In this document: positions 3,184 to 58,204 of the stretch, in pieces | Numbering within the stretch: position 1 is the first letter of the stretch | Layout: each line of letters starts with the position of its first letter | Assembly: GCA_964570325.1 (NCBI GenBank) | Contig: CAZMXS010000001.1 | Coordinates: 96,987 to 160,986, forward strand | Reading direction: 5' to 3' | Length of the DNA: 64,000 nucleotides | Origin: an uncultured Verrucomicrobiota bacterium | GTDB lineage: Bacteria > Verrucomicrobiota > Kiritimatiellia > CAIQIC01 > CAZMXS01 | Made by a program: the position numbers and the translations under genes | Notes under the pieces: model-generated | Databases searched by the model: none | What the model was told of the DNA's origin: nothing | The model's input: only the letters and a program-made list of their open reading frames with translations

Positions 3184-3277
3184 CTTCAATGATCCATTCC
3201 CCTCACTAAAGTTGCATGCAGCGGGAAAGTCAGAAGCGTCTGGCGGATGAAGCGGTCAAACGGCCGGGCGATGCGCC

Positions 3278-5614: not shown

Positions 5615-5616
5615 TT

Positions 5617-5807
5617 AACCCTCGCTTGTCAAAATATATGTATTCTAGATGTATACCGCAATAAACATTGTTACATTTCACAAATGTTTATATCACACGC
5701 TGATACACAAGCAAGTAAAAATCTGATCAATCAAATAAATTATTTGATAACCATCCTAGTATTATACCATTCTGCATACAACAAAAACCGGGTTATATGA
5801 CGAAAGG
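5617..5807. promoter_or_regulatory. AT-rich divergent intergenic region with two perfect palindromes (candidate operators)
   Basis: Strongly AT-rich in a high-GC genome. A 9-bp inverted repeat, ATAAACATT (5661-5669) and AATGTTTAT (5683-5691), has a 13-bp spacer. A 17-bp palindrome TCAAATAAaTTATTTGA lies at 5731-5747. The region sits between the regulator (minus strand) and the CBM/GH genes (plus strand). Confidence 0.5.
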
Positions 5808-17570: not shown

Positions 17571-18716
17571 TCAGGAAACCTTCCGGACCACGGACAGCAC
17601 CACTTCCTCCTTCAAATCAATCAGTTTGGCGATGTCCGGGTGATTGCCCGAACCATCCACCACCACCTTCAGCACCGGCCGCAACGGCAGACCCGCGTTT
17701 TGCTGAACCACCTCGCAAATCGCGTGGTTGTTCAGCTCAACAATCGTACCCACCGGATAGAAACCGCTGAACGAGATGACCCGCTTGAGCAGGTCATAGT
17801 CAAACGCCTTCCGGTACTCCGCGAGGATGTCAAGCAGGTCGCGTGCCTTCTCCCGGCCGGCATCCGCCTTGGATCGGGGGGATTCGAGAAACAGCGAAAC
17901 CGCCAGCAGGTTGGCCACCCCCAGCAACTGGCTCCAGCGCGGGAACTGCTTGCCGGCGATCGCGCCGGGAAACCCCTTGCCGTCCAACCGCTCGTGATGC
18001 TGGGCGATCATCTCAACCACCGGCGCCGGGGCGCCGATCTTGCGGGCGAGCTCGACCCCCTTCATAATATGCTCCGCCAGCGCCGGATTGGCCTCATCGC
18101 GCACCCGGGCCAAGCCATCCTTCATCAACATGAAACCCATATCGTGCAGCAGGCCGGCCGCCCCGAGATCATGCACGGGGAATGGCAACCCTCGCTCGTC
18201 GGCCGCCAAGTCCATCGCCAGCAAAGCCGTATTGATGCTGTGCGCCACCAGGTACTGCAAAGGGTCATCCTCCATTGTACCGGGCCTGATCTCGAAGTTG
18301 ATCACCGCGGCCGAGGTCAGTTGCTGGGCATCGCCGGCAATATGCTTGGCCATCTCCCACAATCCATATTGGTCAGCCGACGGATCGCGGATCTTGTTGA
18401 AAAGGAAGGTCAGCTTGGCCTTCACCTGCTCGGGGGTGATCGCCACCTCGGGCGGCAGCTCAATCCCCAACTCCAACGCCGCCTTGTAAATCGCGGACAT
18501 CCGCTCGCCTTTGTCGGGCGTCACATCCGACACCCAGTTTTTGGGAGCAGCGGCCTCCGGCGTGGACGCAGGGGGCGCCTCAACAGGCGAGGCGACCCCC
18601 GGTGTGGAGCCGGTGGCAGTCGGCGGCGGCACCGAAGCGCCGTTGCGGCCCTTCCCCGATGTTCCCGCATCCTTGATCCAATCGCTCAACCTCATAGGAG
18701 ACGACCTCCCACACAT
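17571..18716 (-). CDS. HD-GYP domain protein (putative c-di-GMP phosphodiesterase)
   Basis: HD motif LLHDMGF and HHERLDGKGFP (matches HHExxDGxGYP). Confidence 0.75.
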   Translation of the reverse strand: MCGRSSPMRLSDWIKDAGTSGKGRNGASVPPPTATGSTPGVASPVEAPPASTPEAAAPKNWVSDVTPDKGERMSAIYKAALELGIELPPEVAITPEQVKAKLTFLFNKIRDPSADQYGLWEMAKHIAGDAQQLTSAAVINFEIRPGTMEDDPLQYLVAHSINTALLAMDLAADERGLPFPVHDLGAAGLLHDMGFMLMKDGLARVRDEANPALAEHIMKGVELARKIGAPAPVVEMIAQHHERLDGKGFPGAIAGKQFPRWSQLLGVANLLAVSLFLESPRSKADAGREKARDLLDILAEYRKAFDYDLLKRVISFSGFYPVGTIVELNNHAICEVVQQNAGLPLRPVLKVVVDGSGNHPDIAKLIDLKEEVVLSVVRKVS

Positions 18717-19364: not shown

Positions 19365-20165
19365 TCATAACATCCGTTCGGCCATGGCCTCGGCGACGTC
19401 ATTGGCGCTGATGACTGCCTGGGTTTTCAAATAACCGGCCAACAGGCACAAGTCCGCGATGGCGTTAATTTCCCGCGGATTACCCTTGCTCAACCGCGCC
19501 ACCTCCACCACGGCGCCGGGTTCAAAAATATCAATGCGGCCGCCGGCCTTCTCCAGCCGGAAGCGCATGTAGTCCTGCACCTCGTCCACCGCCAGCGGCG
19601 GCACATGGAAGCGAAAACCAATACGCTGAACCATTTGTGGAATCGCGCGCAGGCGCTCGTTCACTTCGGTCTGCCCGCTTAAAATCAAGGTCATCAGGTA
19701 ATGGCCCTGCGGATGAAAATTAAGCAGCAGCCGCAATTCCTCCAGCACGGACGCATCCGGGATCAACTGGGCCTCGTCCACCAACATGGCCACATGCCGT
19801 CCGGAAGCGGCGTGGCGCTGAATGGCGTTCTGGAAGGCGTGCAGGACATCGTACTTCGAGCGCGAGTTGATCTCGTCGCCGAGTTGGAAGGACAGCTCCC
19901 GGATCAAATCTATGGCATCCATTCGCGGGTTGGTGACGCTGACCACCTTGTAGCTGGCGGGCGGCAGGCGGCTGAGCGCGGTTTGGCACAGCAAAGTCTT
20001 GCCGGAACCATAATCGCCGGTTAACAGGGTGATCGCCTTGCGGGTTTCGATCGCCATCAACAGGCGCGCGATGCCTTCGCGGTGTCCACGCGACTCGTAG
20101 AAGAAGCGAACATCCGGGGCGTTCTCAAACGGCAACTCGGAAAAATTCCAATACGCGTTGTACAT
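19365..20165 (-). CDS. ExeA/GspA-like AAA ATPase (AAA_22)
   Basis: Walker A GDYGSGKT and Walker B MLVDEAQ. This family is encoded in T2SS-assembly and PEP-CTERM/EPS loci. Confidence 0.7.
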   Translation of the reverse strand: MYNAYWNFSELPFENAPDVRFFYESRGHREGIARLLMAIETRKAITLLTGDYGSGKTLLCQTALSRLPPASYKVVSVTNPRMDAIDLIRELSFQLGDEINSRSKYDVLHAFQNAIQRHAASGRHVAMLVDEAQLIPDASVLEELRLLLNFHPQGHYLMTLILSGQTEVNERLRAIPQMVQRIGFRFHVPPLAVDEVQDYMRFRLEKAGGRIDIFEPGAVVEVARLSKGNPREINAIADLCLLAGYLKTQAVISANDVAEAMAERML

Positions 20166-20451: not shown

Positions 20452-23400
20452 ATGTTTCAGCCTTGGCTCCCGGGAGGGTTTGTTATGCGAACAATGCACT
20501 TTGGAAGCAAGCGGTCACGCGACGGAAGGCAGATCATCAGCGGCATGGGATTATCCATCCTGCTCATTGCCGGTCCGGCTTTTGGCACGGGCTGGATTTC
20601 GCCCAATGCCAATAACAACCCCACCCGTTGGGATAATGAGACTTTGGCGCGCGATAGCAACGTGATCACTTATGCCAGTTGCACACCGAGTAAAACCGGC
20701 TGGGGCCAGGCACTAGAACTTTACTGTGACCCCATCAAGTGCCGGCGCATCCGCGTGAACGCTGATTATCAGCCGGGTGTCAGCTCGGTTCGCCTGGAAA
20801 TCAGGCTGTATCCCAGCGGCACCTGGCAAAACATTTATGAGGGCTCATTCAGCAACCAGGACTGGCAGATCGTCACTTTCAACACCACGAACATCAGCGG
20901 GGCGCGCTGGACCTGGAATTTCACGGACACCATCACTTTCTGGCTCTATGAGCTGGAGTTTTTCGAGGAGGGCGCGACGATCACCGTGCCCGCCTGCGAA
21001 ACGCTGGACGCCAGCTCGGTCGAGGGAACCACGGTCATCCTGCACGGCAACCTGACCGATGATGGCGGCGACCTGTGCCAGTGGCGCATGCAATACGGCC
21101 TGACTTCGAGCTACTCCACCAACACGGAGTGGGTTGGCAACGAGGTGGCGCCAACCCATTTCAGCAAGCTGCTGGTGGATCTGCCGACCAACACCACCTA
21201 CCATTTTCGCGCCCAGGTGCAAAACAGCGCGGGCATCGCCAGCGGCGAGGACAAGGAGTTCACCACCGGCCCGCCGGCCACCGGCTGGATTTCGCCGTCC
21301 GGCTCCAGCAACGACACCGGCAACTGGGAATACCGGGAACGGGCTTACGACGACAACGTGGCAACGGTAGCCCGTTGCCGGCATCCCATGGGCAACCCGG
21401 TCTGGTCGCCCTACATCTACCTGACCCATTCGATTATGATCTGCGACGGAATCGAGTTCTACGCGCGCCGCACCGCGGAGTTCGACATGGGTGAGGTCGG
21501 CGTTCTGCGCAACGGCGCCTGGACCAACGTGTTCAGCGCCAACTTCACCAACCATGTCTGGACCGAGGCCTGGTTCCCGAAAGGCACGGTCACTCAGGCC
21601 CGCGCGCGCTTCCGGCTGACGTCCACCAGCTACGGCCTGGACTACGAACTCAATGAATTCAAGTTCCACCGGCTCGTGGACACGATCATCTCCGGCCGCT
21701 TCAACGGCAATACGCCCGTTACGCTCGTCATCAACGGCGTGACCAACAACACGTTCACGAATTTCACCACCAACGTGTTCAGCTTCGCCGTGTCGGTCGG
21801 CGCCGGCAGCAAGATCTTGATCTTCTACAACGACAACAATCCGGCCACGAACAACGGCGCCGTGGTGACGCTCGCCACCGGCTACAACATGACCGACCTG
21901 GACCTGACGGACGGCGAGCTCATCGTCCGCAACGACTACGGGAGCGGCCTGAGCAACGCGGACCTGATTCAGGCCACCACCGGCGATGCGGATATTCCCT
22001 ACAGCTACAGCGGAACATCCATCATCGTCTCCAATGCCGCCCTCAACGTGCCGGCCGGCCACACCTATGCGCCCGGCACCAACTCGCTCACGCTCTACAG
22101 CAATCTGGTCTACAACGGCACGCTCAACAATACATCCGGCACGGTGACTTTCGCCGGGAACACCCGCATCACCGGCAAGGCCGACGCGTCCTTCTACAAC
22201 GTGACGGTCGCCGGCACGCTTTACGCGCCGACGGGAACGATGTCCGTCGCCGGCAACTGGGTCAATAACGGCTCGTTCTCCAACAACAGCGGCACGGTGA
22301 ACTTCAACGGCAACACCACCATCTCCGGCACGCGGACATCCCTCTTCCACAACGTCACCATCTCCGGCAACCTGGGTGCGCCGGCCGTGATGGGCGTCGC
22401 CGGCAACTGGGTCAATAACGGCGCGTTCTCCAACAACCTCGGCCAGGTAATCTTCAACGGCAACACCACCATCAGCGGGTCCAGCGACACCACCTTCGAC
22501 GACCTGACGATCGCCGCCGGGGCGACGCTGACCGGCCCATCCGGCACGCTGACCGTCAACGGCAACTGGAACAATGCGGGCGGCGCCTATAACCACAATA
22601 ACGGCACGGTCGTCATCGGCGGCACAACCGCCAGCACCAACTCGGGCAACACCACCTTCTACAACCTCGCCTGCACCACCCCGGGCCGGGCGATCTATTT
22701 CACCCCGGGTTCCACCCAGACGGTCGCCGGCACGTTCACGATGGCCGGCGACAGCACCTCCCAGATCCTGCTGCGTTCGACGGTGGCGGGCAGCAAATGG
22801 AAGCTGGACCTGCCCAATACCGACCAGTCCGTGACCTATGTCAATGTGCGCGACTCGGACGCTTTGAACCACACGGTCACCGTCTCCGGTGGCACGGACA
22901 GCGGCAACAACAACGCCAACTGGATTTTCGCCTCGAGCCGCTACTGGGTCGGCGGGACCGGCAATTGGTCGGATACCAACCACTGGTCGCTGACTTCCGG
23001 CGGCCCCGGCGGCGCGTCCGTCCCGACCACCAACCAGCTCGCTATCTTCAACTCCGCCTCGGGCACCGGCACGGCCACGATCAACGTCCCCGCGAACATC
23101 AAGGGCTTGAGCATTCTCGCCGGCACGACGATGACCATCGCCGAAGGGACAAACTTGTTCACAGTCGGCACGGCCGGCTGGGAACAGAAGGGCGGCACCT
23201 ACACCGGCGGCAGCGGCACGCTGACCGTCAACGGCACGTTCCTGCTGACCAACGGCACGTTCACGGCGCCGTCCGGCCTCTTCTCCCTGAGCGGCAACTT
23301 CACCCGCCGGGGCGGCACCTATAACCCCAATGGCGGTACGATCGCGTTCGACGGCTCGACGCTGATCACCCAGACCGTCACCAACAGTTTCGCAAACGTG

Positions 23401-26400
23401 ATCATCAACGGTGAATTGACCGCCCCGGCCTACCTGATCATCAACAGCAATTTTGTCAACAACGGCACATTCAACGCCGGCGCCGGCATCGTGCGCTTCG
23501 CCAGCAACACCGTCGTCAGCGGCGCCAGCACGAGCGTGTTCAACAACCTGCTGATCACCGGGCAATTCACGTCCCATAGCAACTGGCTCAGCATTGCCAA
23601 CAGTCTGACCAACAACGGCACGTTCAACGCCAATGGCGGGACGGTCGCGTTCACCGGCTGGACCATGCTCGGCGGCAACAGCACCTCGCAGTTCAACAAC
23701 GTGGTGATCAACGGCTGGCTGACGCCCGGCGCGACGCGACCGATAATGGTCGCGGGGGACTGGATCAACAACGGCAACTTCTACCACAACGACGGGTCCG
23801 TGATCTTCAACGGGGCCAGCGCCATCAGCGGCACGAACGTCACGGTCTTCAATAATTTCACCATCGCGGGCGCGGTCACCGCGCCCGCCGGCGAGATGCG
23901 CGTCGCCGGCAACTGGGTCAACAACGGAGCGTTCAACGCGAACGGCGGCATGGTCACGTTCAACGGCCAGACCACGATCAGCGGCGCCAGTTCCAACCAG
24001 TTCAACCACGTCACCCTGTGGGGCAACCTGACGGCCCCGACCGGAACGATCTATGTCGCGGGCAACTGGATCAACGACGGATCGTTCACCCATAATAATG
24101 GCACGGTCTTCTTCAACGGGACCAGCCTGATCGGCGGTGGCGTGGTCACAACGTTTAAAAACGTGATCATCGGCGCGGACGCCGCCGTGACCGGCCCCGC
24201 CTCCACCCTGAACGTCGCCGGCAACTGGAACGGCAGCGCCGGCTATTATTACAACAACGGCGGCCGCGTGATCCTGCCCGGCACGACCACACAATGGGTC
24301 TCCACCGGCGGCGCCTGGCTCAACGGCACCAACAACTGGAAGAACAACTGGGGCACCCTGATCGTATCCAACGGCTCCGCCGGCGGCGTCTATTTCACCG
24401 ACGGCTTCAAGGCGAACTACTTCATTGACACCGTGCCCGGCTCAACCCTCTATTTCCGAACGCAGGAGGAAGTCACCAACGTCTATGAGTTCGGCGCCGT
24501 CGGCGGGTTGACCTTGCAGGGTTCGTCATCCCAGCGGATCATCCTGCGCCGCTACGGCGGCTCCGGCACAAACCAGTGGGAATTGACGCCCACCGCCGCG
24601 AGCTTTAACTGGACAGTCAATTATGTGGACGTTCAGAACTCGGTCAACTCGGGATCCAGCGCCATTTACCCGACCAATTCGCTGGACTCCGGCAATACGG
24701 AGAATTGGTTCGTGCCCACGCTCGTCGAGTTCGGCTGGCTCTACGCCATCGGCCGCGACGGCGCGGTTACCGTGCGCTGGAAGACGGAGTCCGAGGTCAA
24801 CAACGCCGGCTTCAACGTGTACCGGGCGCCGGCCGCCGACGGGCCGTACGCGCGACTCAACCCGACGCTGATCCGCGGGCTGGGCAACTCGGTCATGGGC
24901 GGGGAATACAAGTTCGAGGACGGCGCAGCGACCAACGGCGCGACCTATTATTATCTGGTCGAAAGCGTCGAGTATGATGGCCGCGCGCAATTGTTCGGGC
25001 CGTCCGCGGCGCAGCCCGGACGCGACAGCGACGGCGACGGCATGACCGACGACTGGGAGGATTTCTACGGGCTGGACAAGGGGCTGGACGACGCGGGCGG
25101 CAACCCCGACGGCGACGGCTGGACCAACCTCCAGGAGTTCCAGCGCGACACCAACCCGTACCAGGATGAAGGCGAAACGGGCGCAGGCGGGGGCGGCGGC
25201 CCGCCGACCGCCGGCGGGGCGGACCTCTACAAGCTGACGGTTGACGCGGACGGCATCTACCGGCTCGACGCTGCGTACCTCTCGACCTATACCACCAACC
25301 TCGCCGCTTGGGTCGTCAGCAATATCCACATTTTCTGCCAGGGGGCGGCCATCCCACTGCTTTATCACGACGAGGACGACGCCGCCTTCGGCACTAATGA
25401 CTATGTTGAGTTTTTTGGCCGCGGCCTGAACACGCGCTTCTCCGGCGATAATATCTACTGGCTCTGCCCGTGGACCAATGCCGGCCCCATCATGCCCGCT
25501 GTCGGCAACGGCAGCGGAACCCTGCAAACGACCGCGCCGTTCACCGAACACTTCGAAGAAAACGCGTACTACGAACCGGAATTGCCGGACGAATATCCGG
25601 ATGACGACCACTGGTTCTTCTACGACAGCCTCTGGGTCATCGGCCCGGAAACCAATACGCTCGACTTCTTCCCGACGTTGTCCGGCGTCGCCGGCGGCAG
25701 TGCCACCGGGCTGTTGACGGTGGCCTTGCGCGGCCTGAACGAGGGGACCAATACCGTCCGAGTATGGCTGAATGGCGCGGCTTGCCCCGACGCGGTCTGG
25801 ACCGGTCTGCACCAGTATGCCTATGCGGCGCCGATCAGCCAGGCCGGCCTGCTCGAAGGCACAAACACGGTGACGCTTTCGCTGATCGGCGACGAGGAAA
25901 CATTCAGCCGCGATGTGCTGATCAACTGGTTTGAAATCGCCTACACGCGCGACCTCACGGCGGCAAACGGCGCCCTGCTCTTCACCAATCGGGCCGGCGG
26001 CGCGGCGGCCTGGCAGGTCGGCGGCTTCGCCGCCGCCGACGTACGGGTACTGCGCGTGGGCGACACCGGCGATGTCGCCGTCGCGGTGGTGACCAACGTC
26101 ACCGTCAGCGGCGCGGGCCCCTACGCGGCGGTTTTCGCCGACAACGCGCCGGCGGGCGCGGCTTATGCCTTGGCCGCCGCCAACGCCCTTCGCCGCCCGG
26201 CCGCCTGCGTTGCAGAAGAATCGTCGAACCTGCGCAGCGCAACCAACCAGGCCGACTACCTCATCATCGCCTACGAGCCGTTCCGCGAGACACTCGCCCC
26301 GTTGATTGCCGACCGTGCCGCGCGCGGCCTGAACGTCAAAGTCGTCGGCTTGACCGATGTGTACGACGATTTCAACTTCGGGATTCGGAGTCCGTACGCC

Positions 26401-28521
26401 ATCCGCGATTTCCTGGACTACGCCCGACAGTATTGGCGGAAACCGGCCCCCATGTACGTCCTGTTCGCCGGCGACACCTCCTATGATTACCGCGACTATG
26501 AGGACGTTGGCGCGGTTGATTACCTGCCCACGAAGATGATCCACGATGTCTTCGGCGAGGTTCCGTCCGACAACTGGTTTGTTTCGCTGGTCGCAACCAA
26601 CACCGGCTCGGAAGACATGTTTGTCGGGCGTTTCCCCGCGCGCTCCACCAACGACCTGGCGCGTATGATCCAGAAAACGCTCGATTATGAAGCCGCGGAT
26701 CCCGAGGCGCCCTGGGCGCGGCGCGCGGCGTTCGTGGCCGATAATGGGGATCCCGAATATGAGCGCATCTGCGCGGCCACGGCCGGCTGGCTGCCAACCC
26801 ACTACGTCGCCACCAACATCTGGGTCCGGACCTACGCGCAGCCCACCGACTGCCGGCCGGAGATCCTGGCCGCGTTCAACAGCGGCGCGCTGCTGATCGA
26901 GTACGCCGGACATGGCTCCTACAGCAAGTGGGCGCACGAGGGCATCTTCCGCAACGAGGACATTGCCGCCCTCACCAACGCCGCGACCACGCCGCTGGTC
27001 GTTACGCCCACCTGCATGAACGGTTACTTCGTCACCCCGGCTCACTACAACCGCGAGTGCATGGCCGAACAGCTCATACGAACGAACCGCGTCGGCGCCG
27101 CCGCCTGCCTCTCGCCATCCGGCTGGTCGGCGCCGCCTGAACAGCGCGTGCTGGCCGAGGGGCTCTTCCAGGCGATTTTCGCGGAGGGCGCCTTCGAAGC
27201 CGGCCCGGCGGTCGCGCGCGCGAAGCAGCTCCTGCTTGAACAGCACGGCACCAACGGCCTGATGGTGGCCAATACTTACGTTCTCTTCGGCGACCCGGCC
27301 CTGCGCCTGCGCCGGTGGTCCGGCTATGTGTACGACACGAACGCGCCGGCCGTCACCGCCGTCAACCCGACTAACGGCTCGATCGCCGCCGATCCGGCCG
27401 GCGCCATCCGCGTGACCTTCAGCAAGCCAATGAACGACATCGCCACGCGCACGGCATTTGCCCTCGATCCGCCAGCCGCCGGCGCGTTCCAGTGGGACGG
27501 GAACACCCTCGTGTTCCAACCGGAAGCGGCCCTGACGCCGTTCGTCACCTACACCGTCACGCTTCACGACACCGCCTGCGACCGCACCGGCCACCGGCTG
27601 GCGGCGGACTATACCTTCGCCTTCACGCCCACGCGCTGGACGGCCGCCGGCACAATCGCCTACGCCGGGTTGCAGTCCGGTTTGATCTACATCTTCGGCG
27701 TCGCAACGGAGGACGACTGGCGTCCCGGCGCCACGCCCGCCCTGATTTCACAGCCGGGCGCCTACACGCTTGACCGGCCGGGCAATACGCCGATGTGGCT
27801 GCGCGCGTTCCGCGACACCAACGGCAACGGCCTCCTGGACCCCATGGAGGCCCGCGGGGAATATATCGGGAATCCGGTGATGCTGACCCATGACTTGAAT
27901 GTGGACATTACCCTCGTGGACCCCGACGCGGACAGCGACGGCCTGCCCGACTGGGTCGAGGACAACGGCGGCATTTACTACGGCGCCACGCGCACCGGCA
28001 GCAACCCAAACAACGCCGACACCGATGGCGACGGCATCCCCGACGCCACCGAGGTAAATGTTTACAACAGCAATCCCGCCAATGCGGACACGGATAAGGA
28101 CGGGCTGGACGACAGCGCCGAGCTGCTGGCGGGCACCAACCTGCGCAACTGGGACACCGACGGCGATCTGGTCGGCGACTATCAGGAACTGTTTGTTTAC
28201 GGGACCGACCCCCTGAAAGCCGACACCGACGCCGACCACATCTGGGACGGCGACGAATTGATTGCCGGCACCAGCCCGACCAACGGTCTGGACTTCCTCC
28301 ACGTCACGCAATATGAAACGGCAGACGGCGCCGAATTCACTTTCACCTGGGAGACGCGGAGCAACCGCTGGTATGACCTCCAGGGCGCGCCGGACATCTT
28401 CGATTCCGCGACCTGGACCACACTCGAAACACGGCTGGGCGACGGCGCGACCGTTACCGCCACCAACACGCCGGCCCCCGATCTGCGCTTTTTCTGGATT
28501 AACGTGCGGCCGGCGGAGTAG
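20452..28521 (+). CDS. giant (2689 aa) secreted/cell-surface protein with PATR-like beta-strand repeats, Ca-binding TSP3-like repeats and a peptidase C25 (gingipain)-like domain
   Basis: Signal peptide. Dozens of ~35-40-aa repeats (GNWVNNGxFSNNxGTVxFNGNTTISG). D-x-D-x-D-G clusters. His and Cys dyad-like motifs EYAGHGSYSKW and VTPTCMNGYF at about 26.9-27.0 kb. Confidence 0.85.
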   Translation: MFQPWLPGGFVMRTMHFGSKRSRDGRQIISGMGLSILLIAGPAFGTGWISPNANNNPTRWDNETLARDSNVITYASCTPSKTGWGQALELYCDPIKCRRIRVNADYQPGVSSVRLEIRLYPSGTWQNIYEGSFSNQDWQIVTFNTTNISGARWTWNFTDTITFWLYELEFFEEGATITVPACETLDASSVEGTTVILHGNLTDDGGDLCQWRMQYGLTSSYSTNTEWVGNEVAPTHFSKLLVDLPTNTTYHFRAQVQNSAGIASGEDKEFTTGPPATGWISPSGSSNDTGNWEYRERAYDDNVATVARCRHPMGNPVWSPYIYLTHSIMICDGIEFYARRTAEFDMGEVGVLRNGAWTNVFSANFTNHVWTEAWFPKGTVTQARARFRLTSTSYGLDYELNEFKFHRLVDTIISGRFNGNTPVTLVINGVTNNTFTNFTTNVFSFAVSVGAGSKILIFYNDNNPATNNGAVVTLATGYNMTDLDLTDGELIVRNDYGSGLSNADLIQATTGDADIPYSYSGTSIIVSNAALNVPAGHTYAPGTNSLTLYSNLVYNGTLNNTSGTVTFAGNTRITGKADASFYNVTVAGTLYAPTGTMSVAGNWVNNGSFSNNSGTVNFNGNTTISGTRTSLFHNVTISGNLGAPAVMGVAGNWVNNGAFSNNLGQVIFNGNTTISGSSDTTFDDLTIAAGATLTGPSGTLTVNGNWNNAGGAYNHNNGTVVIGGTTASTNSGNTTFYNLACTTPGRAIYFTPGSTQTVAGTFTMAGDSTSQILLRSTVAGSKWKLDLPNTDQSVTYVNVRDSDALNHTVTVSGGTDSGNNNANWIFASSRYWVGGTGNWSDTNHWSLTSGGPGGASVPTTNQLAIFNSASGTGTATINVPANIKGLSILAGTTMTIAEGTNLFTVGTAGWEQKGGTYTGGSGTLTVNGTFLLTNGTFTAPSGLFSLSGNFTRRGGTYNPNGGTIAFDGSTLITQTVTNSFANVIINGELTAPAYLIINSNFVNNGTFNAGAGIVRFASNTVVSGASTSVFNNLLITGQFTSHSNWLSIANSLTNNGTFNANGGTVAFTGWTMLGGNSTSQFNNVVINGWLTPGATRPIMVAGDWINNGNFYHNDGSVIFNGASAISGTNVTVFNNFTIAGAVTAPAGEMRVAGNWVNNGAFNANGGMVTFNGQTTISGASSNQFNHVTLWGNLTAPTGTIYVAGNWINDGSFTHNNGTVFFNGTSLIGGGVVTTFKNVIIGADAAVTGPASTLNVAGNWNGSAGYYYNNGGRVILPGTTTQWVSTGGAWLNGTNNWKNNWGTLIVSNGSAGGVYFTDGFKANYFIDTVPGSTLYFRTQEEVTNVYEFGAVGGLTLQGSSSQRIILRRYGGSGTNQWELTPTAASFNWTVNYVDVQNSVNSGSSAIYPTNSLDSGNTENWFVPTLVEFGWLYAIGRDGAVTVRWKTESEVNNAGFNVYRAPAADGPYARLNPTLIRGLGNSVMGGEYKFEDGAATNGATYYYLVESVEYDGRAQLFGPSAAQPGRDSDGDGMTDDWEDFYGLDKGLDDAGGNPDGDGWTNLQEFQRDTNPYQDEGETGAGGGGGPPTAGGADLYKLTVDADGIYRLDAAYLSTYTTNLAAWVVSNIHIFCQGAAIPLLYHDEDDAAFGTNDYVEFFGRGLNTRFSGDNIYWLCPWTNAGPIMPAVGNGSGTLQTTAPFTEHFEENAYYEPELPDEYPDDDHWFFYDSLWVIGPETNTLDFFPTLSGVAGGSATGLLTVALRGLNEGTNTVRVWLNGAACPDAVWTGLHQYAYAAPISQAGLLEGTNTVTLSLIGDEETFSRDVLINWFEIAYTRDLTAANGALLFTNRAGGAAAWQVGGFAAADVRVLRVGDTGDVAVAVVTNVTVSGAGPYAAVFADNAPAGAAYALAAANALRRPAACVAEESSNLRSATNQADYLIIAYEPFRETLAPLIADRAARGLNVKVVGLTDVYDDFNFGIRSPYAIRDFLDYARQYWRKPAPMYVLFAGDTSYDYRDYEDVGAVDYLPTKMIHDVFGEVPSDNWFVSLVATNTGSEDMFVGRFPARSTNDLARMIQKTLDYEAADPEAPWARRAAFVADNGDPEYERICAATAGWLPTHYVATNIWVRTYAQPTDCRPEILAAFNSGALLIEYAGHGSYSKWAHEGIFRNEDIAALTNAATTPLVVTPTCMNGYFVTPAHYNRECMAEQLIRTNRVGAAACLSPSGWSAPPEQRVLAEGLFQAIFAEGAFEAGPAVARAKQLLLEQHGTNGLMVANTYVLFGDPALRLRRWSGYVYDTNAPAVTAVNPTNGSIAADPAGAIRVTFSKPMNDIATRTAFALDPPAAGAFQWDGNTLVFQPEAALTPFVTYTVTLHDTACDRTGHRLAADYTFAFTPTRWTAAGTIAYAGLQSGLIYIFGVATEDDWRPGATPALISQPGAYTLDRPGNTPMWLRAFRDTNGNGLLDPMEARGEYIGNPVMLTHDLNVDITLVDPDADSDGLPDWVEDNGGIYYGATRTGSNPNNADTDGDGIPDATEVNVYNSNPANADTDKDGLDDSAELLAGTNLRNWDTDGDLVGDYQELFVYGTDPLKADTDADHIWDGDELIAGTSPTNGLDFLHVTQYETADGAEFTFTWETRSNRWYDLQGAPDIFDSATWTTLETRLGDGATVTATNTPAPDLRFFWINVRPAE

Positions 28522-28531
28522 CGGGCAATCC

Positions 28532-29365
28532 ATGCCGGAGTCCGCATCCAAACCGATTCAGGAGCTGCCGACCCGGCTGGCCGGGTTCCCTTTCACGTTA
28601 CAATTTTATGATCCTGCGCTGAAATCACAGGCGGCCCGGCAGGTGCCCTTGGCGCGGCACGCCGGCGCGCGCGATTCAGTCACGCTGATGGTGCTTCCCC
28701 CAACGCGCGGCGCCGCGCGGGCACGGCGCCGGAGCATGACGGTTCGACTGGATGGCGTCGGAGGTTATTCCGGCGAGTTTGATCCGGTTACCCGCCGCGG
28801 TTGGATCCGCGTAGCGGAAGATCACCCGCTGGAGGCCCTCCTGAACGCCCTGCGCCGCATCGTGACCCTGCTCGTTTACCGGGAAGGCGGCGCCGTCATC
28901 CACGGCGCGGGTGTGCAGCGCGGGCGGCGGCTTTTCATCTTCTTCGGGCCCAGCGGCGCAGGCAAAACCACGGTCTGCGAGCTGTCGCCGGAAGCCAAGA
29001 TTCTCAACGACGATCTGATGGCTGTGCGCCGGGTGAACGGCCGAGCGCGGGTGTGGCCCATGCCCTGCCGCCGCCCGGCCCCGGCCCGACCGCCCGCGGG
29101 CGACGATGGCCGGGAGCCCGCGCTCCTGATTGAATTGCGGCAAGCCCGCAAGACCTACCTGCAACGCCTGCCGCCCGCGCTCGCGCTGGCGCGGGTGCTG
29201 GCCCTGCCGGCCGAACCGAGCAACCCGCAAGCGACGCTGGAGATTCTGGAGCGCCTGGTCCGCCAAACCCCCTGTTACCGGCTGTATTTTACCCGGACTC
29301 CGGATTTCTGGGGCCCGATCGAGTCCTTGTTGGCCAACCCACGGAGACAAGCCGATGTCCGGTGA
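28532..29365 (+). CDS. HPr kinase/phosphorylase-related P-loop kinase
   Basis: IHGAGVQRGRRLFIFFGPSGAGKTT...ILNDDLMAV resembles the HprK C-terminal domain (P-loop followed by an LVADD-like motif). Starts 10 nt after the giant gene stop. Confidence 0.65.
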   Translation: MPESASKPIQELPTRLAGFPFTLQFYDPALKSQAARQVPLARHAGARDSVTLMVLPPTRGAARARRRSMTVRLDGVGGYSGEFDPVTRRGWIRVAEDHPLEALLNALRRIVTLLVYREGGAVIHGAGVQRGRRLFIFFGPSGAGKTTVCELSPEAKILNDDLMAVRRVNGRARVWPMPCRRPAPARPPAGDDGREPALLIELRQARKTYLQRLPPALALARVLALPAEPSNPQATLEILERLVRQTPCYRLYFTRTPDFWGPIESLLANPRRQADVR

Positions 29366-29645
29366 GATTTTCCAGCGATCCCCGCGCGCCGTGCATCGGG
29401 TTGTTGACGGCGAGGCCGTCATTGTCGAACCGGCGATCGGCATGGTCACCATCTTGAACGATGTCGGCGCGCGAGTCTGGGAATCGCTGGACGGGCGGCA
29501 GTCCGCGGCAGAAATCGCCGCCGCCATCGCGGAGGAATACGCGGTGCCCCCCGCCGAGGCCGCGGCCGACGTGACCGCTTTTCTGGCGGAGTTGATGGAA
29601 AAGGGATTGATCAATCGGCATGACGACCGCGGTAATAAAAACTGA
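29355..29645 (+). CDS. PqqD-family protein (RiPP recognition element-like)
   Basis: VVDGEAVIVEP...ILNDVGARVWESLDGRQSAAEIAAAIAEEY follows the PqqD pattern. Overlaps the kinase gene by 11 nt. Confidence 0.7.
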   Translation: MSGEIFQRSPRAVHRVVDGEAVIVEPAIGMVTILNDVGARVWESLDGRQSAAEIAAAIAEEYAVPPAEAAADVTAFLAELMEKGLINRHDDRGNKN

Positions 29646-30663
29646 TGCGGATCCCTATCAGGCGATCCTGCGCAAAACCTTTGAACGGCGCATCCCGTTC
29701 ACGGCGCATTGGGAACTCACCTACCGCTGCAATTTCAAATGCCTGCATTGTTTTAACCGAAATCATCCGGCGGAAGGCGAACTGACCCAGACCGAAATCG
29801 AGCGGGTGCTCGATGAATTGGCCGCGGCCGGCACGCTCTACTTGACCTTCACCGGTGGCGAGATCCTGTTGCGTCCGGATTTTCTGCCCATACTGCGCGC
29901 GGCCCGCCGGCGCAATTTCGCGCTGCGCCTGCTGACCAATGGCGCGCTCCTCACCCCGACCCTCGCGGATGAAATCGCGGCGCTGGGCGTCGCCGGCGTG
30001 GACATCAGCCTGCACACACTCGATCCGAGAATCCATGACCATTTGACCGGCGCGCCCGGAACGCATCCGGCCGTCCTTGCGGCGATCGCGGCCTGCCGCG
30101 CGCGCGGCATTCCGCTTAACATCAAGTTCATCTTGACCCGCCACAATCAAGGGGAGTATGACCGGGTTGCGGAATACGCCGCCGCCTGCGGGGCGCGCGT
30201 GGTGATGGATTACGTCCTGGTGCCCGCCGACGACGGCGCACCGGTCATGGCGCGCCATGGGTTGAACGAAGCGGAAATTAGCGCCTTCATCGCCGCGCAC
30301 GCCGCCCGACCGCCCGTCGCCTTGAGTTTGCCGAACGGCAACGACCCCATCTGCGGCGCGGGCGCCAACGCATGCTGCATCAATCCATACGGCGAAGTGT
30401 TTCCCTGCCTGGCCCTGCGGCGCAGTGTCGGCAACCTGCGCAATCGGTCATTTATGAACATCTGGCATGGGCCCGCCCTTGACAGCATACGGAATACGAC
30501 CTATTCTAGTTTCGTCGAGTGCAACGGTTGCCGGGACGCCGTTTTTTGTATGCGGTGCCCTGGAGTGGCGTTGGCGGAAACCGGGCAGACCACCGGGCGG
30601 GCGCCGACAATCTGCCAGGCCGCCCGGGCCGCGCACGCAGCCGCCGAGCAAATACAGCAATGA
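29620..30663 (+). CDS. radical SAM / SPASM-domain peptide-maturase-like enzyme
   Basis: CNFKCLHC (CxxxCxxC). SPASM Cys clusters CGAGANACCINPYGEVFPC and CNGCRDAVFCMRCPG. Overlaps the PqqD gene by 26 nt. Confidence 0.85.
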   Translation: MTTAVIKTDADPYQAILRKTFERRIPFTAHWELTYRCNFKCLHCFNRNHPAEGELTQTEIERVLDELAAAGTLYLTFTGGEILLRPDFLPILRAARRRNFALRLLTNGALLTPTLADEIAALGVAGVDISLHTLDPRIHDHLTGAPGTHPAVLAAIAACRARGIPLNIKFILTRHNQGEYDRVAEYAAACGARVVMDYVLVPADDGAPVMARHGLNEAEISAFIAAHAARPPVALSLPNGNDPICGAGANACCINPYGEVFPCLALRRSVGNLRNRSFMNIWHGPALDSIRNTTYSSFVECNGCRDAVFCMRCPGVALAETGQTTGRAPTICQAARAAHAAAEQIQQ

Positions 30664-30824
30664 AAAACATGAACACCGGCAAAGAAAAGAAAAAGTACCG
30701 GAAACCCAGGATCATCTACCGGGAAAAGGCTGAAGTTTTGACCGCCGTCTGCGATTCCGCTTGGATGCCGGGCCGTTCCTGCATGCTGGTTGGCAATCCC
30801 AACTGCCAGAAGACGCGCTTCTAG
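30660..30824 (+). CDS. candidate RiPP precursor peptide (54 aa, Lys-rich leader, Cys-containing C-terminal core)
   Basis: ATG at 30660 overlaps the TGA of the rSAM gene (ATGA). Sequence: MKNMNTGKEKKKYRKPRIIYREKAEVLTAVCDSAWMPGRSCMLVGNPNCQKTRF. The ORF track has it only as the tail of a longer spurious ORF. Confidence 0.5.
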   Translation: MKNMNTGKEKKKYRKPRIIYREKAEVLTAVCDSAWMPGRSCMLVGNPNCQKTRF

Positions 30825-30844
30825 CCCGGCGCGCGGGCCGCGCC

Positions 30845-31972
30845 ATGGGGGCCATGAACGACCCGCCGTCAGTCTCCATCCAGGCATTCCAACTTTCCCT
30901 TCCTGGAAACGCCTGCTCCACAACTGCGTTCCCACCCGCGCTGATCCGCGCGGCTGAAGTCGAGGGCCTGGCGGAATTAATCGCGCATGAACGGCGCGAC
31001 ACGGCGCCCGACCGATTCAAGGAAATCTATACCGCGACGCTGGCGCGTAATGTCCTTTTCCTGGATATTCTCAAACAGATTCGCGGCCGGCTGGCCGGCA
31101 TGGAATATATCGCACTCAAAGGGGCGTATCTGGCAGAGCGCGTCTATCCCGACATCGGCCTGCGCCGGTTTTCCGATATTGACCTGCTGGTCCGCCCCCG
31201 CGACGTGCCCGAAGCCGTGCGCCGATTGAGCGCCTTGGATTATCAGCCCACCGATGGCGCGGCCGTAACCACAGCCCAGCCGCCCGTCTCCTATTTTCTC
31301 AACAGCATCCAATTGCGGGGACCGGCCCACACCCCGGCCGTCCATTTGCACTGGCACCTGTTCAATTCCATCCTGCCGCGACACCCATTCGCGCCTCCAG
31401 ACATCGCCCCGGTCTGGGCCGCCGCCACGCGCGATCCGGCCGGCCAACTGGAAATGTCAAGCGAGCACCTGCTGATCCATCTGGCCGATCATGCCCTGCG
31501 GCATTCCTACGCCCGCTTGAGCCTGCTACGCGACATCGCCGAGGTGTTCATCCGGCGCGCGGCGCAAATCAACCGGGAACGGCTGGCGGCAGCGGCGCGC
31601 GCGCTGCGGCTGGAACGCCCCCTGTATTTCAGCCTGGCCTGGCTGCATTATTTCGCGCCCGGTTTGTTCGACGCCCGTTGCCTGGATCAGGTGCGGCCCG
31701 CGCGCGCCGGCGCGGCCGAACGGCTGTTCCTGCGCCTGCTGCTGGCGGACCGACGGTCGGCGGAACTGTGCCTGCTGGCCTATTATGCGGAAGCCGATTC
31801 GCTGGCGGCCAAGGCCCGATTCGCGAGCCGGCTGCTTTTCCCGCCGCGCGCGGTAATGGGACAAGCCTTTGCGAAACCGGCGGACGATATTACGATCAGT
31901 GATTACGCGTGGCGGCTGGGACGCGGACTGCGGCATGTGGCGCTGGCGTGCCGGCGCGGAATCTGGAAGTGA
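30845..31972 (+). CDS. nucleotidyltransferase-like protein (NTP_transf_5-like)
   Basis: IALKGAYLAERVYPDIGLRRFSDIDLLV motif. Start is uncertain (30761, 30845 or 30854). Confidence 0.55.
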   Translation: MGAMNDPPSVSIQAFQLSLPGNACSTTAFPPALIRAAEVEGLAELIAHERRDTAPDRFKEIYTATLARNVLFLDILKQIRGRLAGMEYIALKGAYLAERVYPDIGLRRFSDIDLLVRPRDVPEAVRRLSALDYQPTDGAAVTTAQPPVSYFLNSIQLRGPAHTPAVHLHWHLFNSILPRHPFAPPDIAPVWAAATRDPAGQLEMSSEHLLIHLADHALRHSYARLSLLRDIAEVFIRRAAQINRERLAAAARALRLERPLYFSLAWLHYFAPGLFDARCLDQVRPARAGAAERLFLRLLLADRRSAELCLLAYYAEADSLAAKARFASRLLFPPRAVMGQAFAKPADDITISDYAWRLGRGLRHVALACRRGIWK

Positions 31973-34785: not shown

Positions 34786-35598
34786 TTAATAGTGCCCCAG
34801 ACTGCCGCTTCGCCGCGCGCGCCGCAGCGCGCGCGCCAACACCAGCGTGGCCACCGGCGCCAACACAACCGCAAACACCGCCAACCCGAGCACATCGCGC
34901 GCATACGCCGCACCGCTCCAACCCGCGATCAAAGCGGCGCGGAAGGCATCGGTGGCATAGGGCAGTGGCAGCAGTCGCGCCAGCCATTGCAGCGGCGCCG
35001 GCATGACATCCAGCGGAAACAAGACGCCGCCGAGCAGTAAAAACAGGCTGCTCAACAGCCAGTTCACCGGGTCGCCGCGCTTGAACACCAGGATGAAGGA
35101 AGCCGAGATGATCCCCAGGCTGAAAAAAACCACCGTCGCCAGGCACCACGGCAGCAGCAGCGCCAGCCAGCGCGCGGCAGTCAACCGCGCCCCAAGGAGC
35201 CAGCCGCCCACCACAAAGAAACCACCCAATTGCAGCAGCGCGAGCGCGAAGTCGAACGCGCACCAGCCGCACAGCAGGGTCGGCAGCGAGGTCGGCGTAA
35301 GGCACAATGCCTCCAGACAACCGGAGGTCTGCTCCTGACGCAGGCGGGCGGGCAGCATGCCCAAGCAGGTCGTCAGATAGGAATAGAACGCCAGACCGAC
35401 CAGCGCATAGGTAAAATAGTCTGCGCCCCACCCCGCCGGCGCCGCCGGCCGGCCGCGCGCGATAAACCGTCCCAGGAAAAAGAGCAGGAGGCAATAGAAC
35501 ACCAGCGTGGCGATCTGCAACGCGATCGCCAGCCGGTAGCTGCGCTCAATCCGATAGTCCCGCAGGCAGAAGGCGGCCACTTTGCGCCAGGCAATCAT
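34786..35598 (-). CDS. ABC-2 type transporter permease
   Basis: Six TM helices with an ABC-2 pattern. ATGA overlap with the downstream ATPase gene. Confidence 0.75.
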   Translation of the reverse strand: MIAWRKVAAFCLRDYRIERSYRLAIALQIATLVFYCLLLFFLGRFIARGRPAAPAGWGADYFTYALVGLAFYSYLTTCLGMLPARLRQEQTSGCLEALCLTPTSLPTLLCGWCAFDFALALLQLGGFFVVGGWLLGARLTAARWLALLLPWCLATVVFFSLGIISASFILVFKRGDPVNWLLSSLFLLLGGVLFPLDVMPAPLQWLARLLPLPYATDAFRAALIAGWSGAAYARDVLGLAVFAVVLAPVATLVLARALRRARRSGSLGHY

Positions 35599-36257
35599 CC
35601 ATCCGCCTCCAGCCGGCCGGCGCGGATCGTCCAGCGCCGCGCGGGCGCCAAGGGCAATTCTCCCGGCGTATGTGTCGCCATAAGGACCGCCAGACCGCGC
35701 TCACGGTTCAAGCGGCCGACGAGTTCAAAAGCCAGGCGCCGGGCCGCGGAGTCCAGGCTCCGCTCCGGCTCGTCAAGCAACAGCACCTGCGGCTGGTGCA
35801 ATACGGCGCGCAACAGGCCGAACCGGCGCTGCACGCCGGTCGAACATTGCGCGAACGGGATGTCCAACCACTCCATCAAACCCAGCGCGTCGCTCAGCTC
35901 ACCTATCCGTTCCGCCAACGCCGCGCGGGGAATATCGAAGAGCGCTCCAAAGAATTCCAGGTTCGCACGGCCGGTCAGCCGCCAGTAAAAACCGCGACTA
36001 TCCTCCGCGAACAAGCCCAGTTGCCGCCGTGCCGCCAGCGCCTCCCGCGCGGCGTCCCGTCCGACCACGCGCACGGTGCCGGCATCCGGCGCGTACAGGC
36101 CGGCCGCCAGCTTCATCAATGTGGTTTTCCCGCTGCCGTTGGCCCCCAGGAGCAACGCCCGTTCGGCCGGCGCCAAGGTCATGGAGACGTGGTCCAAAAC
36201 CCGGATCGGCGGCCGGAACGACTTGGAAACATCGGCCAATTCAAGCGCGGGAGTCAT
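35595..36257 (-). CDS. ABC transporter ATP-binding protein
   Basis: Walker A GANGSGKTT, Q-loop, signature CSTGVQRR and Walker B LLLDEP. Confidence 0.85.
   Translation of the reverse strand: MTPALELADVSKSFRPPIRVLDHVSMTLAPAERALLLGANGSGKTTLMKLAAGLYAPDAGTVRVVGRDAAREALAARRQLGLFAEDSRGFYWRLTGRANLEFFGALFDIPRAALAERIGELSDALGLMEWLDIPFAQCSTGVQRRFGLLRAVLHQPQVLLLDEPERSLDSAARRLAFELVGRLNRERGLAVLMATHTPGELPLAPARRWTIRAGRLEADG

Positions 36258-55111: not shown

Positions 55112-58204
<3,093 letters not shown>

Follow-up and report, generated by a model that had tools for sequence, protein, structure and literature searches.

The DNA analyzed here, referred to as the window, is a stretch of 64,000 nucleotides from an uncultured Verrucomicrobiota bacterium of the class Kiritimatiellia (GenBank assembly GCA_964570325.1, contig CAZMXS010000001.1). 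Between positions 28532 and 31972 its + strand carries five tightly packed genes, encoding a ScmC-like kinase-fold protein, a PqqD-family protein, a radical SAM/SPASM enzyme, a small cysteine-containing peptide and a nucleotidyltransferase-fold protein, which probably form an operon for the maturation of a peptide made by ribosomes and modified after translation (RiPP). If this is true, the operon represents a widespread RiPP-type pathway for which no description was found, in which radical SAM chemistry would be joined to a kinase/nucleotidyltransferase tailoring so far known from lasso peptides. Moreover, the orphan ScmC/PqqD/radical SAM type of cassette would thereby gain an identifiable precursor with clear motifs for recognition, cleavage and the acceptor residue, and with the precursor identified the chemistry becomes directly testable by co-expression and mass spectrometry.

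Organization of the operon and its products

The gene for the ScmC-like P-loop protein (277 amino acids, 28532-29365, TGA stop codon at 29363-29365) overlaps by 11 nucleotides with the gene for the PqqD-family protein (96 amino acids, 29355-29645), which in turn overlaps by 26 nucleotides with the gene for the radical SAM/SPASM enzyme (347 amino acids, 29620-30663). At the stop codon of the latter an ATGA junction at 30660-30663 contains the ATG of the precursor peptide open reading frame (ORF) of 54 codons (30660-30824), and the gene for the NTP_transf_5 (PF14907) nucleotidyltransferase-fold protein (375 amino acids, 30845-31972) starts 20 nucleotides past the stop codon of the peptide. A first-pass annotation of this DNA had described the five ORFs with these overlaps, the motifs FFGPSGAGKTT followed by NDDLMAV, the motif CNFKCLHC and two SPASM cysteine groups; all its coordinates and motifs hold, and the PqqD, radical SAM/SPASM and NTP_transf_5-like identities that it had assigned pass the respective Pfam thresholds. 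The unit is wider than these five genes, as it also involves a giant secreted C25 protein encoded directly upstream on the + strand (2689 amino acids, 20452-28521, with its stop codon 10 nucleotides ahead of the kinase-like gene), a soluble S26-like peptidase that is present in relatives of the cassette, and an ABC-2 exporter. The latter is encoded downstream on the - strand by an ABC-2 permease gene (34786-35598, Pfam ABC2_membrane) paired with an ABC ATPase gene (35595-36257, Pfam ABC_tran), a candidate exporter that presumably belongs to the system. A scan of the region from 19 to 34 kb for promoters and terminators gave no result above shuffled expectation, so that the operon boundaries are drawn from gene spacing only. 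A sigma-70-like TTGACA-17-TATTCT site is located at 30479-30507 inside the 3' end of the radical SAM gene, upstream of the peptide start; such sites do not exceed shuffled expectation.

The precursor peptide of 54 amino acids has the sequence MKNMNTGKEKKKYRKPRIIYREKAEVLTAVCDSAWMPGRSCMLVGNPNCQKTRF. It consists of a lysine-rich leader with the motif Y13-x-K-P16-x-I18, a predicted leader/core boundary around T28/A29 and a core with Cys31, Cys41 and Cys49, the last cysteine being followed by five residues. The peptide has no match in Pfam or NCBIfam and a word-index homologue search with it returned only the peptide itself; its relatives were recovered from six-frame ORFs by custom hidden Markov models (HMMs) and a regular expression. 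By this approach 46 of 86 loci were found to have a homologous small ORF in the same slot after the radical SAM gene, and the two genes often share the stop/start overlap seen in the window. In comparison to the homologue of a Kiritimatiellia locus (L005), 19 of 34 identical residues are encoded by different codons. As about half of the codons differ at identical residues, the peptide ORF is under selection at the protein level. It is a genuine gene, and its protein sequence is conserved across phyla.

The family was compared over 45 distinct peptides. A lysine/arginine-rich leader with Y-x-[KR]-P-x-[IV] is present in 45/45 peptides, including the tyrosine and the proline in all 45, and the distance from the tyrosine to the first cysteine is exactly 18 residues in 43/45. 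The leader motif is followed by a conserved E-[AVTS]-x-A sequence, placing [AVTS] and A at positions -3 and -1 ahead of the predicted core. Type I signal peptidases follow a -3/-1 rule, and the [AVTS]-x-A sequence two residues ahead of the first cysteine would fit this rule. The cores are otherwise variable and contain two to four cysteines, with exactly five residues past the last cysteine in 30/45 peptides and a last residue that is Ser in 31/45, Thr in five and Phe in four. The peptides of the clade to which the window peptide belongs (Kiritimatiellia/Lentisphaerota-like) have three cysteines, the motif C-[DN]-[ST]-x-W after the first cysteine (x mostly Ala) and tails of the type K-T-R-[F/L/T]; the window peptide itself ends in KTRF and is thus Phe-terminated. 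In lasso peptides, the leaders carry a YxxPxL motif at positions -17 to -12 (PMC10368454). The Y-x-x-P-x-[L/I] motif of the peptides described here and its distance to the core match this lasso leader motif, while the lasso PqqD models score below their cutoffs.

The PqqD-family protein belongs to the Pfam family PF05402, which it matches with 74.7 bits (cutoff 23.4) over profile positions 1-67 of 67. Its best NCBIfam scores, all below the cutoffs, are those for ScmD (41.3 bits), lasso_PqqD_Bac (39.9) and the HPr-rel-A PqqD family (29.8 bits, cutoff 35). PqqD-family proteins bind peptide leaders, and the protein of 96 amino acids is presumed to act as the leader-binding RiPP recognition element (RRE) of the operon.

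The third protein belongs to the radical SAM/SPASM subfamily, with a CxxxCxxC motif, a C-terminal SPASM domain and the cysteine complement for two auxiliary clusters. It matches the Pfam families PF04055 with 94.4 bits (cutoff 29.5) and SPASM PF13186 with 44.6 bits (cutoff 21.5). The motif for the SAM cluster is C37-x3-C41-x2-C44 (CNFKCLHC) and the SPASM cysteines are C245, C263, C301, C304, C310 and C313. All of 20 aligned homologues have C37, C41, C44, C245, C263 and C313, and for C301, C304 and C310 the conservation is at least 90%. No NCBIfam equivalog cutoff is reached, the best scores being NirJ2 with 143 of 500, MftC with 129 of 265 and AhbD with 123 of 500. The alignments to NirJ2 and AhbD are confined to the N-terminal radical SAM core, those to MftC, StsB and AlbA span the full length, and MftC is the top near-full-length match (residues 25-310, 128.7 bits). 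Among PDB sequences a protein annotated as Fe-S radical SAM (8wm2), PqqE and SkfB were matched with E values of about 1e-11 to 1e-12. The HMMs hence do not place the enzyme in a non-peptide family, since its best NCBIfam scores stay far below the cutoffs.

The kinase-like protein, the sequence of which contains FIFFGPSGAGKTTVCELSPEAKILNDDLMAV, is related to HPr kinase in fold. Its best NCBIfam match is a weak one to ScmC (E value 1e-3, 18.5 bits, cutoff 125), and precomputed Pfam data assign it to PF27840 ScmC. It has no match in the local Pfam library, the HprK profile included, and phmmer searches against PDB sequences returned generic P-loop matches only, with no significant match to HprK. 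An alignment of 13 sequences of the family contains invariant His124, G139-x-S-G-x-G-K145-T and D160. The order of the histidine, the Walker A motif and the Asp-Asp pair is that of HprK (H...GxSGxGKT...DD). An AlphaFold model built from this alignment has a predicted local distance difference test (pLDDT) score of 86.5 and a predicted template modelling (pTM) score of 0.85. By the histidine preceding and the Asp-Asp following Walker A the protein belongs to the superfamily of the PEPCK-like/HprK C-domain fold, and by sequence it is not a member of the HPr kinase/phosphorylase (HprK/P) family. The HprK relation claimed for it in the first-pass annotation thus stands for a PEPCK/HprK-type fold, given the confident model and the motif order, and falls for HprK proper, to which no sequence match was found. 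A kinase activity is hence suggested by the fold and the motifs, not by sequence similarity. A Chloroflexota homologue matches the models HprK_rel_B with an E value of 1.6e-9 and HprK_rel_A with 6.7e-5.

The NTP_transf_5 protein is a member of its Pfam family (PF14907, 128 bits, cutoff 31.2). G93, R107, D111, D113, H169, H216 and D230 are invariant in 16 homologues, and the G...D-x-D signature of nucleotidyltransferases is present as LKGAYL...SDIDLLV (G93, D111, D113). No relative in the PDB was found by a single-sequence search or by a search with a profile of 16 sequences; a single-sequence AlphaFold prediction reached a pLDDT of 36.4 and was not used for a fold search.

In most related loci the set of enzymes is complemented by a S26/SipW-like peptidase, which passes the model TIGR02228 (cutoff 51.85 bits) with 56.1 bits in L009 and 60.2 bits in L039. 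It possesses the S-M-x-P, H-R and G-D boxes and contains no transmembrane, signal or hydrophobic segment. The gene is located after the peptide gene or fused to the 5' part of the NTP_transf_5 gene, forming its N-terminus (L001, L003, L005, L015), with coordinates of 12276-12749 in L094, 9190-9660 in L009 and 9320-10861 in L005. The lack of a transmembrane or signal segment and the fusion to a presumably cytoplasmic nucleotidyltransferase in several loci make it unlikely that the enzyme serves the secreted C25 protein as a membrane-bound signal peptidase. The whole 64-kb window has no S24/S26-like ORF, and none passes the leader-peptidase model TIGR02228. The interval between the peptide and NTP_transf_5 genes (30824-30845) is devoid of such a gene, and the nearest relative L094 has one. 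The S26-like gene of the window's cassette was thus lost or never present. Within the Planctomycetes-Verrucomicrobia-Chlamydiae (PVC) clade the loci that lack this gene and have DNA across the interval from the peptide to NTP_transf_5 are the window and L014, and the peptides of both deviate at -1/-3, the window peptide having V-L-T and that of L014 R-A-A at an altered spacing. At the predicted -1 position for cleavage, where Ala is nearly universal, the window peptide has Thr.

Conservation of the cassette and its C25 partner

The cassette is conserved far beyond the Kiritimatiellia. A word-index search yielded 45 homologues of the radical SAM enzyme, and the contexts looked at share the gene order. 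A pattern scan with one genome per species identified 572 relatives of the enzyme that were confirmed by tblastn, and 80 loci were kept. These originate from Kiritimatiellia, Lentisphaerota, Nitrospirota, Thermodesulfobacteriota, Elusimicrobiota, Omnitrophota, Chloroflexota (most numerous), Acidobacteriota, Clostridia, Methanophagales and several other groups. For mapping the loci, HMMs were built from the first loci and neighbours were counted within 10 kb of the radical SAM gene, or 11 kb in the case of C25. Among all 86 non-redundant loci 60 have the ScmC-like gene, 72 PqqD, 46 the peptide, 44 a S24/S26-like gene, 27 NTP_transf_5 and 30 a C25 gene. Restricting this to the 24 loci with both ScmC-like and PqqD genes and flanks of at least 8 kb on each side gives 24 for ScmC-like, 24 for PqqD, 15 for the peptide, 19 for S24/S26-like, 12 for NTP_transf_5 and 15 for C25. 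The HMMs were built and iterated on this same set of loci, which makes weak peptide matches (E values of about 1e-5) less certain than the core, and some loci are truncated, so that absences are partly artefactual. Synteny of ScmC-like, PqqD, radical SAM and peptide genes recurs in dozens of loci of more than 10 phyla. The nucleotidyltransferase is part of about half of the related loci only. The first-pass annotation had listed outcomes that would speak against its reading, namely a radical SAM enzyme of a non-peptide family, a kinase-like protein without the HprK fold and a lack of synteny in other genomes; all were tested, and its reading was supported, with synteny strongly conserved.

The cassette is itself part of a larger group. 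A search with the ScmC profile yielded 2,588 clusters at 50% identity with E values up to 1e-30 and 22,242 with E values up to 1e-10, and distant ScmC relatives again reside in ScmC-PqqD-radical SAM triads. These data point to a large and essentially unstudied superfamily of cassettes.

The giant protein encoded upstream of the cassette has a signal-like segment at its N-terminus and contains repeat/adhesin-like regions. Residues 1936-2286 form a cysteine peptidase domain of the C25 (gingipain/PorU-like) type, which is followed by Big_5 and TSP3 repeats. The protein matches Pfam Peptidase_C25 with 252.7 bits, and its best NCBIfam match is the sortase PorU of the type IX secretion system (T9SS; NF033707) with 188.6 bits, below the cutoff of 420 for family membership. 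Similarly, for every C25 relative tested the best named match is PorU or PorU2 with 169-345 bits versus 420, the highest value being that of L009. The sequences GHGS and TCMNG of the giant protein align to GHGS and ACVNG of gingipain R (4ief/1cvr), motifs which we take to hold the catalytic residues His211 and Cys244. The His and Cys at these positions are kept in 40/40 aligned C25 domains. Like PorU and the gingipains, the giant protein and its counterparts thus carry a C25 domain with aligned His and Cys; unlike them, they have adhesin-like regions of huge size at the N-terminus, and their genes are associated with a RiPP-like cassette. A report on a PorU/gingipain-type protein linked to such a cassette was not found in the literature. 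A T9SS is not known from the host phyla (PVC, Chloroflexota, Acidobacteriota and others).

The C25 genes precede the cassette in L001, L003, L009, L060 and L094, and in Chloroflexota they are located inside or just after it. As an example, the C25 gene of the Chloroflexota locus L039 overlaps at its 5' end with an upstream ORF of 539 amino acids and at its 3' end with the S26-like gene. If the reading as a RiPP-type pathway is right, the recurrence of this partnership in phyla without a known T9SS, with the His and Cys kept, hints at a role of the modified peptide in the processing or anchoring of surface proteins, which would be a new role for RiPP machinery.

As an observation on the giant protein itself, a beta-sandwich-like domain of about 95 amino acids (residues 1427-1524, about 24730-25023, VTVRWKTESEVNNAGFNVYRA...YYYLVESVEYDG) has no match in Pfam. 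Its homologues (E values of 1e-14 to 1e-21) are small proteins of Chloroflexota with a signal sequence or a lipobox, encoded directly upstream of the ScmC-like gene (L039 6244-6603, L063 4917-5363, L059 8386-8940 and others); some of these proteins end in a hydrophobic segment and a basic tail.

Proposed pathway in comparison with known systems

Among the known systems closest in architecture is the catalogued but uncharacterized SynChlorMet cassette (NCBIfam TIGR04248-TIGR04251; ScmD, ScmC, ScmE, ScmF), which has the same triad of a ScmC-type protein, a discrete PqqD protein and radical SAM/SPASM enzymes. The scores of the window proteins are all far below the cutoffs (ScmC 18.5 of 125, ScmD 41.3 of 100, ScmE 88.4 of 400, ScmF 66.6 of 400), and the window has one radical SAM enzyme compared to the two listed for SynChlorMet. 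In contrast to the latter, the system described here has an identifiable precursor, NTP_transf_5, the PorU-like C25 partner and, in relatives, the S26-like peptidase. SynChlorMet is catalogued, and no paper on it was found in the literature. The first-pass annotation had mentioned catalogued orphan systems of an HprK-related kinase, PqqD and a nucleotidyltransferase, and for the kinase and PqqD there are indeed entries in NCBIfam, named 'HPr-rel-A system PqqD family peptide chaperone' and 'HprK-related kinase A/B' (TIGR04353 for PqqD, TIGR04352 for kinase A, TIGR04355 for kinase B). This catalogued orphan kinase-PqqD pairing does not include the window proteins, as the PqqD protein scores 29.8 versus the cutoff of 35 and the kinase-like protein matches neither kinase model at E values up to 0.01. 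Judged from the sequences, the best-scoring catalogued relatives of the kinase-like and PqqD proteins are ScmC and ScmD and not HPr-rel-A. To our knowledge, the HPr-rel-A system contains no radical SAM enzyme.

For lasso peptides, tailoring by HPr-kinase homologues and nucleotidyltransferases, as stated in the first-pass annotation, is documented in a review (PMC8498205). The HPr-kinase homologues phosphorylate the C-terminal Ser of the lasso precursors, or Ser3 in BsfA, acting on the linear precursor (PMC8498205; PMC10368454). In pseudomycoidin the nucleotidyltransferase adds one or two hexoses to the phosphate, and the lasso nucleotidyltransferase is sometimes fused to the leader protease (PMC8498205), an arrangement paralleled by the S26-like/NTP_transf_5 fusion in L001, L003, L005 and L015. 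Tailored lasso peptides (paeninodin, pseudomycoidin, Bradymonas Bsf) have in common with the cassette a leader motif of the form YxxPx[L/I], an enzyme of HPr-kinase fold, a nucleotidyltransferase and a separate protein of the PqqD type, in the cassette the presumed RRE. Unlike lasso clusters, the cassette has a radical SAM/SPASM enzyme, a cysteine-bearing core and a S26-type peptidase, and its PqqD protein scores 39.9 of 80 with the lasso_PqqD models. Among the window ORFs of at least 150 amino acids that were scanned, neither an Asn-synthetase-like lasso cyclase nor a transglutaminase-type B2 protease was present, as had been noted before, and a lasso peptide cluster was rejected on this basis. 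The Asn synthase near L001/L003 behaves like a true AsnB, the one near L003 scoring 324.8 with the AsnB model (cutoff 267) and 195.7 with the lasso cyclase model (cutoff 525).

Maturases of sactipeptides (AlbA, StsB, SkfB) and ranthipeptides as well as MftC and PqqE share with the window enzyme the radical SAM core and the full SPASM domain, along with a short cysteine-containing core and, as presumed for the window, leader recognition by an RRE. The enzyme does not reach the cutoffs of the thioether-maturase comparisons (AlbA 71 of 850, StsB 85 of 625, MftC 129 of 265, PqqE 99 of 381; SkfB also below the cutoff) and, unlike in the thioether maturases listed, the RRE is a separate protein. Nor does the cassette fit a mycofactocin system, with 128.7 bits versus 265 for MftC and a peptide that ends in KTRF and not in the GVY of MftA; the window scans gave no MftD/E/F-like neighbours. 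Overall, no NCBIfam equivalog fits and no description of the cassette was found in the literature and curated libraries, subscription literature being mostly outside this coverage so that an earlier description is possible. This agrees with the initial impression that the combination does not correspond to a characterized RiPP class. Unreported features are the identifiable precursor family, the kinase/nucleotidyltransferase pair outside lasso peptides, the S26-type leader peptidase and the PorU-like C25 partner.

From these parallels the following pathway is proposed. The PqqD protein would bind the precursor of 54 amino acids via the Y-x-K-P-x-I leader motif, in line with the established role of an RRE, and present it to the radical SAM/SPASM enzyme, which would modify the cysteine-containing core. 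By analogy with SPASM peptide maturases the likeliest chemistry is the formation of a Cys-derived thioether or another radical cross-link. The ScmC-like enzyme, judged by its fold, its motifs and the lasso precedents, may phosphorylate the precursor at the hydroxyl group of a Ser or Thr. The phosphate acceptor would be the conserved C-terminal Ser in most members of the family; in the window Thr52 of the K-T-R-F tail or Ser33 of the C-[DN]-[ST] motif are candidates. Following the example of pseudomycoidin, NTP_transf_5 might then decorate the phosphate with a glycosyl or nucleotidyl group. In most of the relatives the soluble S26/SipW-like Ser-His peptidase would cut off the leader at the A-x-A-like site two residues ahead of the first cysteine, and the product would be exported, probably by the neighbouring ABC-2 transporter. 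Outside the cell it might act together with the secreted PorU-like C25 peptidase/transpeptidase at a surface coated by the polysaccharide of the Wza/Wzc/Wzy locus. This partnership is the least understood part; the peptide may be processed by the C25 protein, regulate it or be used by it for transpeptidation. All of these chemical steps, their order, the export and the connection to the C25 protein are inferred, and what the data show are the gene identities and folds, the motifs, their conservation and the synteny.

Several points weigh against this pathway. No modification was observed and all of the chemistry is assigned by analogy; the peptide is linked to the C25 protein solely by gene neighbourhood. 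NTP_transf_5 and C25 are found in just 12 and 15, respectively, of the 24 well-flanked loci with ScmC-like and PqqD genes, the sequence of the ScmC-like protein does not match HprK significantly, and the top HMM scores of the radical SAM enzyme, all far below the cutoffs, go to the cofactor enzymes NirJ2, MftC and AhbD. Furthermore, the window peptide ends in Phe and not in Ser and the window lacks a S26-like peptidase, suggesting that the local pathway differs or is partly decayed.

Alternatively, the product might be a free-standing secreted RiPP, a bacteriocin or a signal, with the C25 and polysaccharide genes being mere frequent neighbours. The locus follows the usual grammar of such systems, i.e., leader peptide, RRE, radical SAM enzyme, tailoring enzymes, peptidase and ABC transporter; L005/L017 (Kiritimatiellia) has the cassette without a C25 gene in about 7 kb upstream, and C25 is found in just 15/24 fully flanked loci. 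We nevertheless regard this explanation as rather unlikely, as no immunity gene is evident and the C25 gene adjoins or overlaps cassette genes in Kiritimatiellota, Omnitrophota, Chloroflexota and Acidobacteriota with a different order and the same content, which is hard to explain without selection for co-inheritance. The cassette and the PorU-like C25 protein could also constitute an unrecognized cell-surface attachment system outside type IX secretion. The mature peptide, with its N-terminus set free by leader removal, its core cross-linked at Cys and its C-terminal Ser/Thr phospho-glycosylated, would then act as acceptor, linker or activating partner for a PorU-type transpeptidase and tether giant adhesin-like proteins to the Wza/Wzc/Wzy polysaccharide or the envelope; this is a speculative and unlikely reading. 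That the giant C25 protein or the polysaccharide is instead the substrate of the enzymes, the product of the small ORF being a regulatory or structural accessory, is very improbable. The operon does start with the giant gene, 10 nucleotides upstream, radical SAM/SPASM enzymes such as anSME modify proteins, and HprK-like and nucleotidyltransferase folds could act on sugars. But the PqqD family binds peptide leaders, the peptide has a lasso-type leader motif with fixed spacing and is translationally coupled to the radical SAM gene in many phyla, and the cassette of L005 has no detectable adjacent C25 gene.

Other explanations concern the fate of the peptide core. It might be the source of a small-molecule cofactor in the style of pyrroloquinoline quinone (PQQ) or mycofactocin, only a few residues, a Cys and the C-terminal one, being excised after cross-linking by the radical SAM enzyme and then phosphorylated or glycosylated. 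MftC is the top near-full-length NCBIfam match of this enzyme and PqqE also scores, the discrete PqqD-type partner is as in the Mft and Pqq systems, and conservation of the core is limited to the cysteines, the C-terminal residue and the spacing to the C-terminus. This origin of the product is nonetheless considered improbable, because neither a client of the dehydrogenase or oxidoreductase type nor a gene resembling MftD/E/F or PqqB/C was seen in the neighbourhoods examined, the scores for MftC and PqqE are far below the cutoffs, and the neighbours are secreted surface proteins and exporters. Class III/IV lanthipeptide synthetases act by phosphorylation followed by elimination. Similarly, the kinase, with or without the nucleotidyltransferase, might activate the conserved Ser/Thr for elimination to dehydroalanine or dehydrobutyrine, to which the conserved cysteine close by adds, the radical SAM enzyme acting otherwise. 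This precedent and the C-x4-[S/T] spacing at the C-terminus, which is fixed in 30/45 peptides, would be compatible with such lanthionine-like chemistry, but no lyase or cyclase domain was found, the terminal residue of the window peptide is Phe and the lasso precedents keep the phosphate, leaving it a slim chance.

Genomic surroundings of the cassette

Genes for an ABC-2 exporter and for the export of polysaccharides often lie next to the RiPP-type cassette. Unbiased clustering of the ORFs flanking the radical SAM gene recovered the radical SAM/PqqD, ScmC-like and S24/NTP5 clusters, a cluster of large secreted proteins in 41 loci and a cluster of ABC ATPases in 23 loci, as well as clusters of smaller size with genes for Wzc, Wza, ABC-2 permease, HD-domain and LuxR-type proteins. 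A convergent ABC-2 pair directly follows the cassette in L008, L009 and L060, and further ABC-2 permease matches are present in L018 and L020. Wza, Wzc and Wzy are encoded beside the cassette in L009, L015, L018 and L060, L008 has Wza and Wzc, and the HD gene is also found in L009 and L015.

In the window the corresponding genes, assigned by Pfam/NCBIfam, lie on the - strand and encode a Wzy-like polymerase (13247-14620), a Wzc-like tyrosine autokinase (14712-16757), a Wza-like exporter (16714-17541) and a HD-domain protein (17571-18716). They are followed by a gene on the same strand for an ExeA-like AAA ATPase of the PEP-CTERM-locus type (19365-20165), the best match of which is the XrtA/PEP-CTERM-associated model TIGR03015 (E value 1.7e-54, below the cutoff); no exosortase was present among the window ORFs scanned. 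Downstream, genes for a DUF3592 protein, an AsmA-like protein, a methyltransferase, the ABC-2 permease/ATPase, and WecA-like, DegT, PIG-L, WbqC and glycosyltransferase proteins are found. Moreover, two large proteins encoded on the - strand at 10024-13107 and 55112-58291 each combine a Ser/Thr protein kinase with leucine-rich repeats and a C-type lectin domain, and one of them also matches a 3-keto-disaccharide hydrolase. Proteins identical to those of the window are also encoded on metagenome contigs from JGI with lengths of up to 192 kb, and the closest named genomes are metagenome-assembled genomes of Kiritimatiellia and Lentisphaerota.

Some related loci deviate in their composition. Loci with the radical SAM gene only, mostly from Armatimonadota (e.g., L022-L024, L026, L028), seem to form a subfamily of their own that does not have the cassette. 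In the Rokubacteria-type variant L006/L007 (8001-9041) several of the cysteines in the SPASM region of the radical SAM enzyme are lost, and downstream of its gene no ORF for a peptide was detected; a PqqD and a S26-like gene are located about 5.5 kb upstream, beside genes for a methyltransferase and a beta-propeller protein. The distant ScmC-PqqD-radical SAM locus L095 contains a second PqqD gene followed by a Transglut_core3 gene (2668-3502), a pair resembling lasso B1/B2, a few kb upstream and beside a Wzy_C gene. Finally, in the Chloroflexota locus L039 a DsbA-like thioredoxin-fold gene (5351-6235) is located just upstream of the cassette; this gene could relate to the cysteines conserved in the peptide or in the C25 protein.

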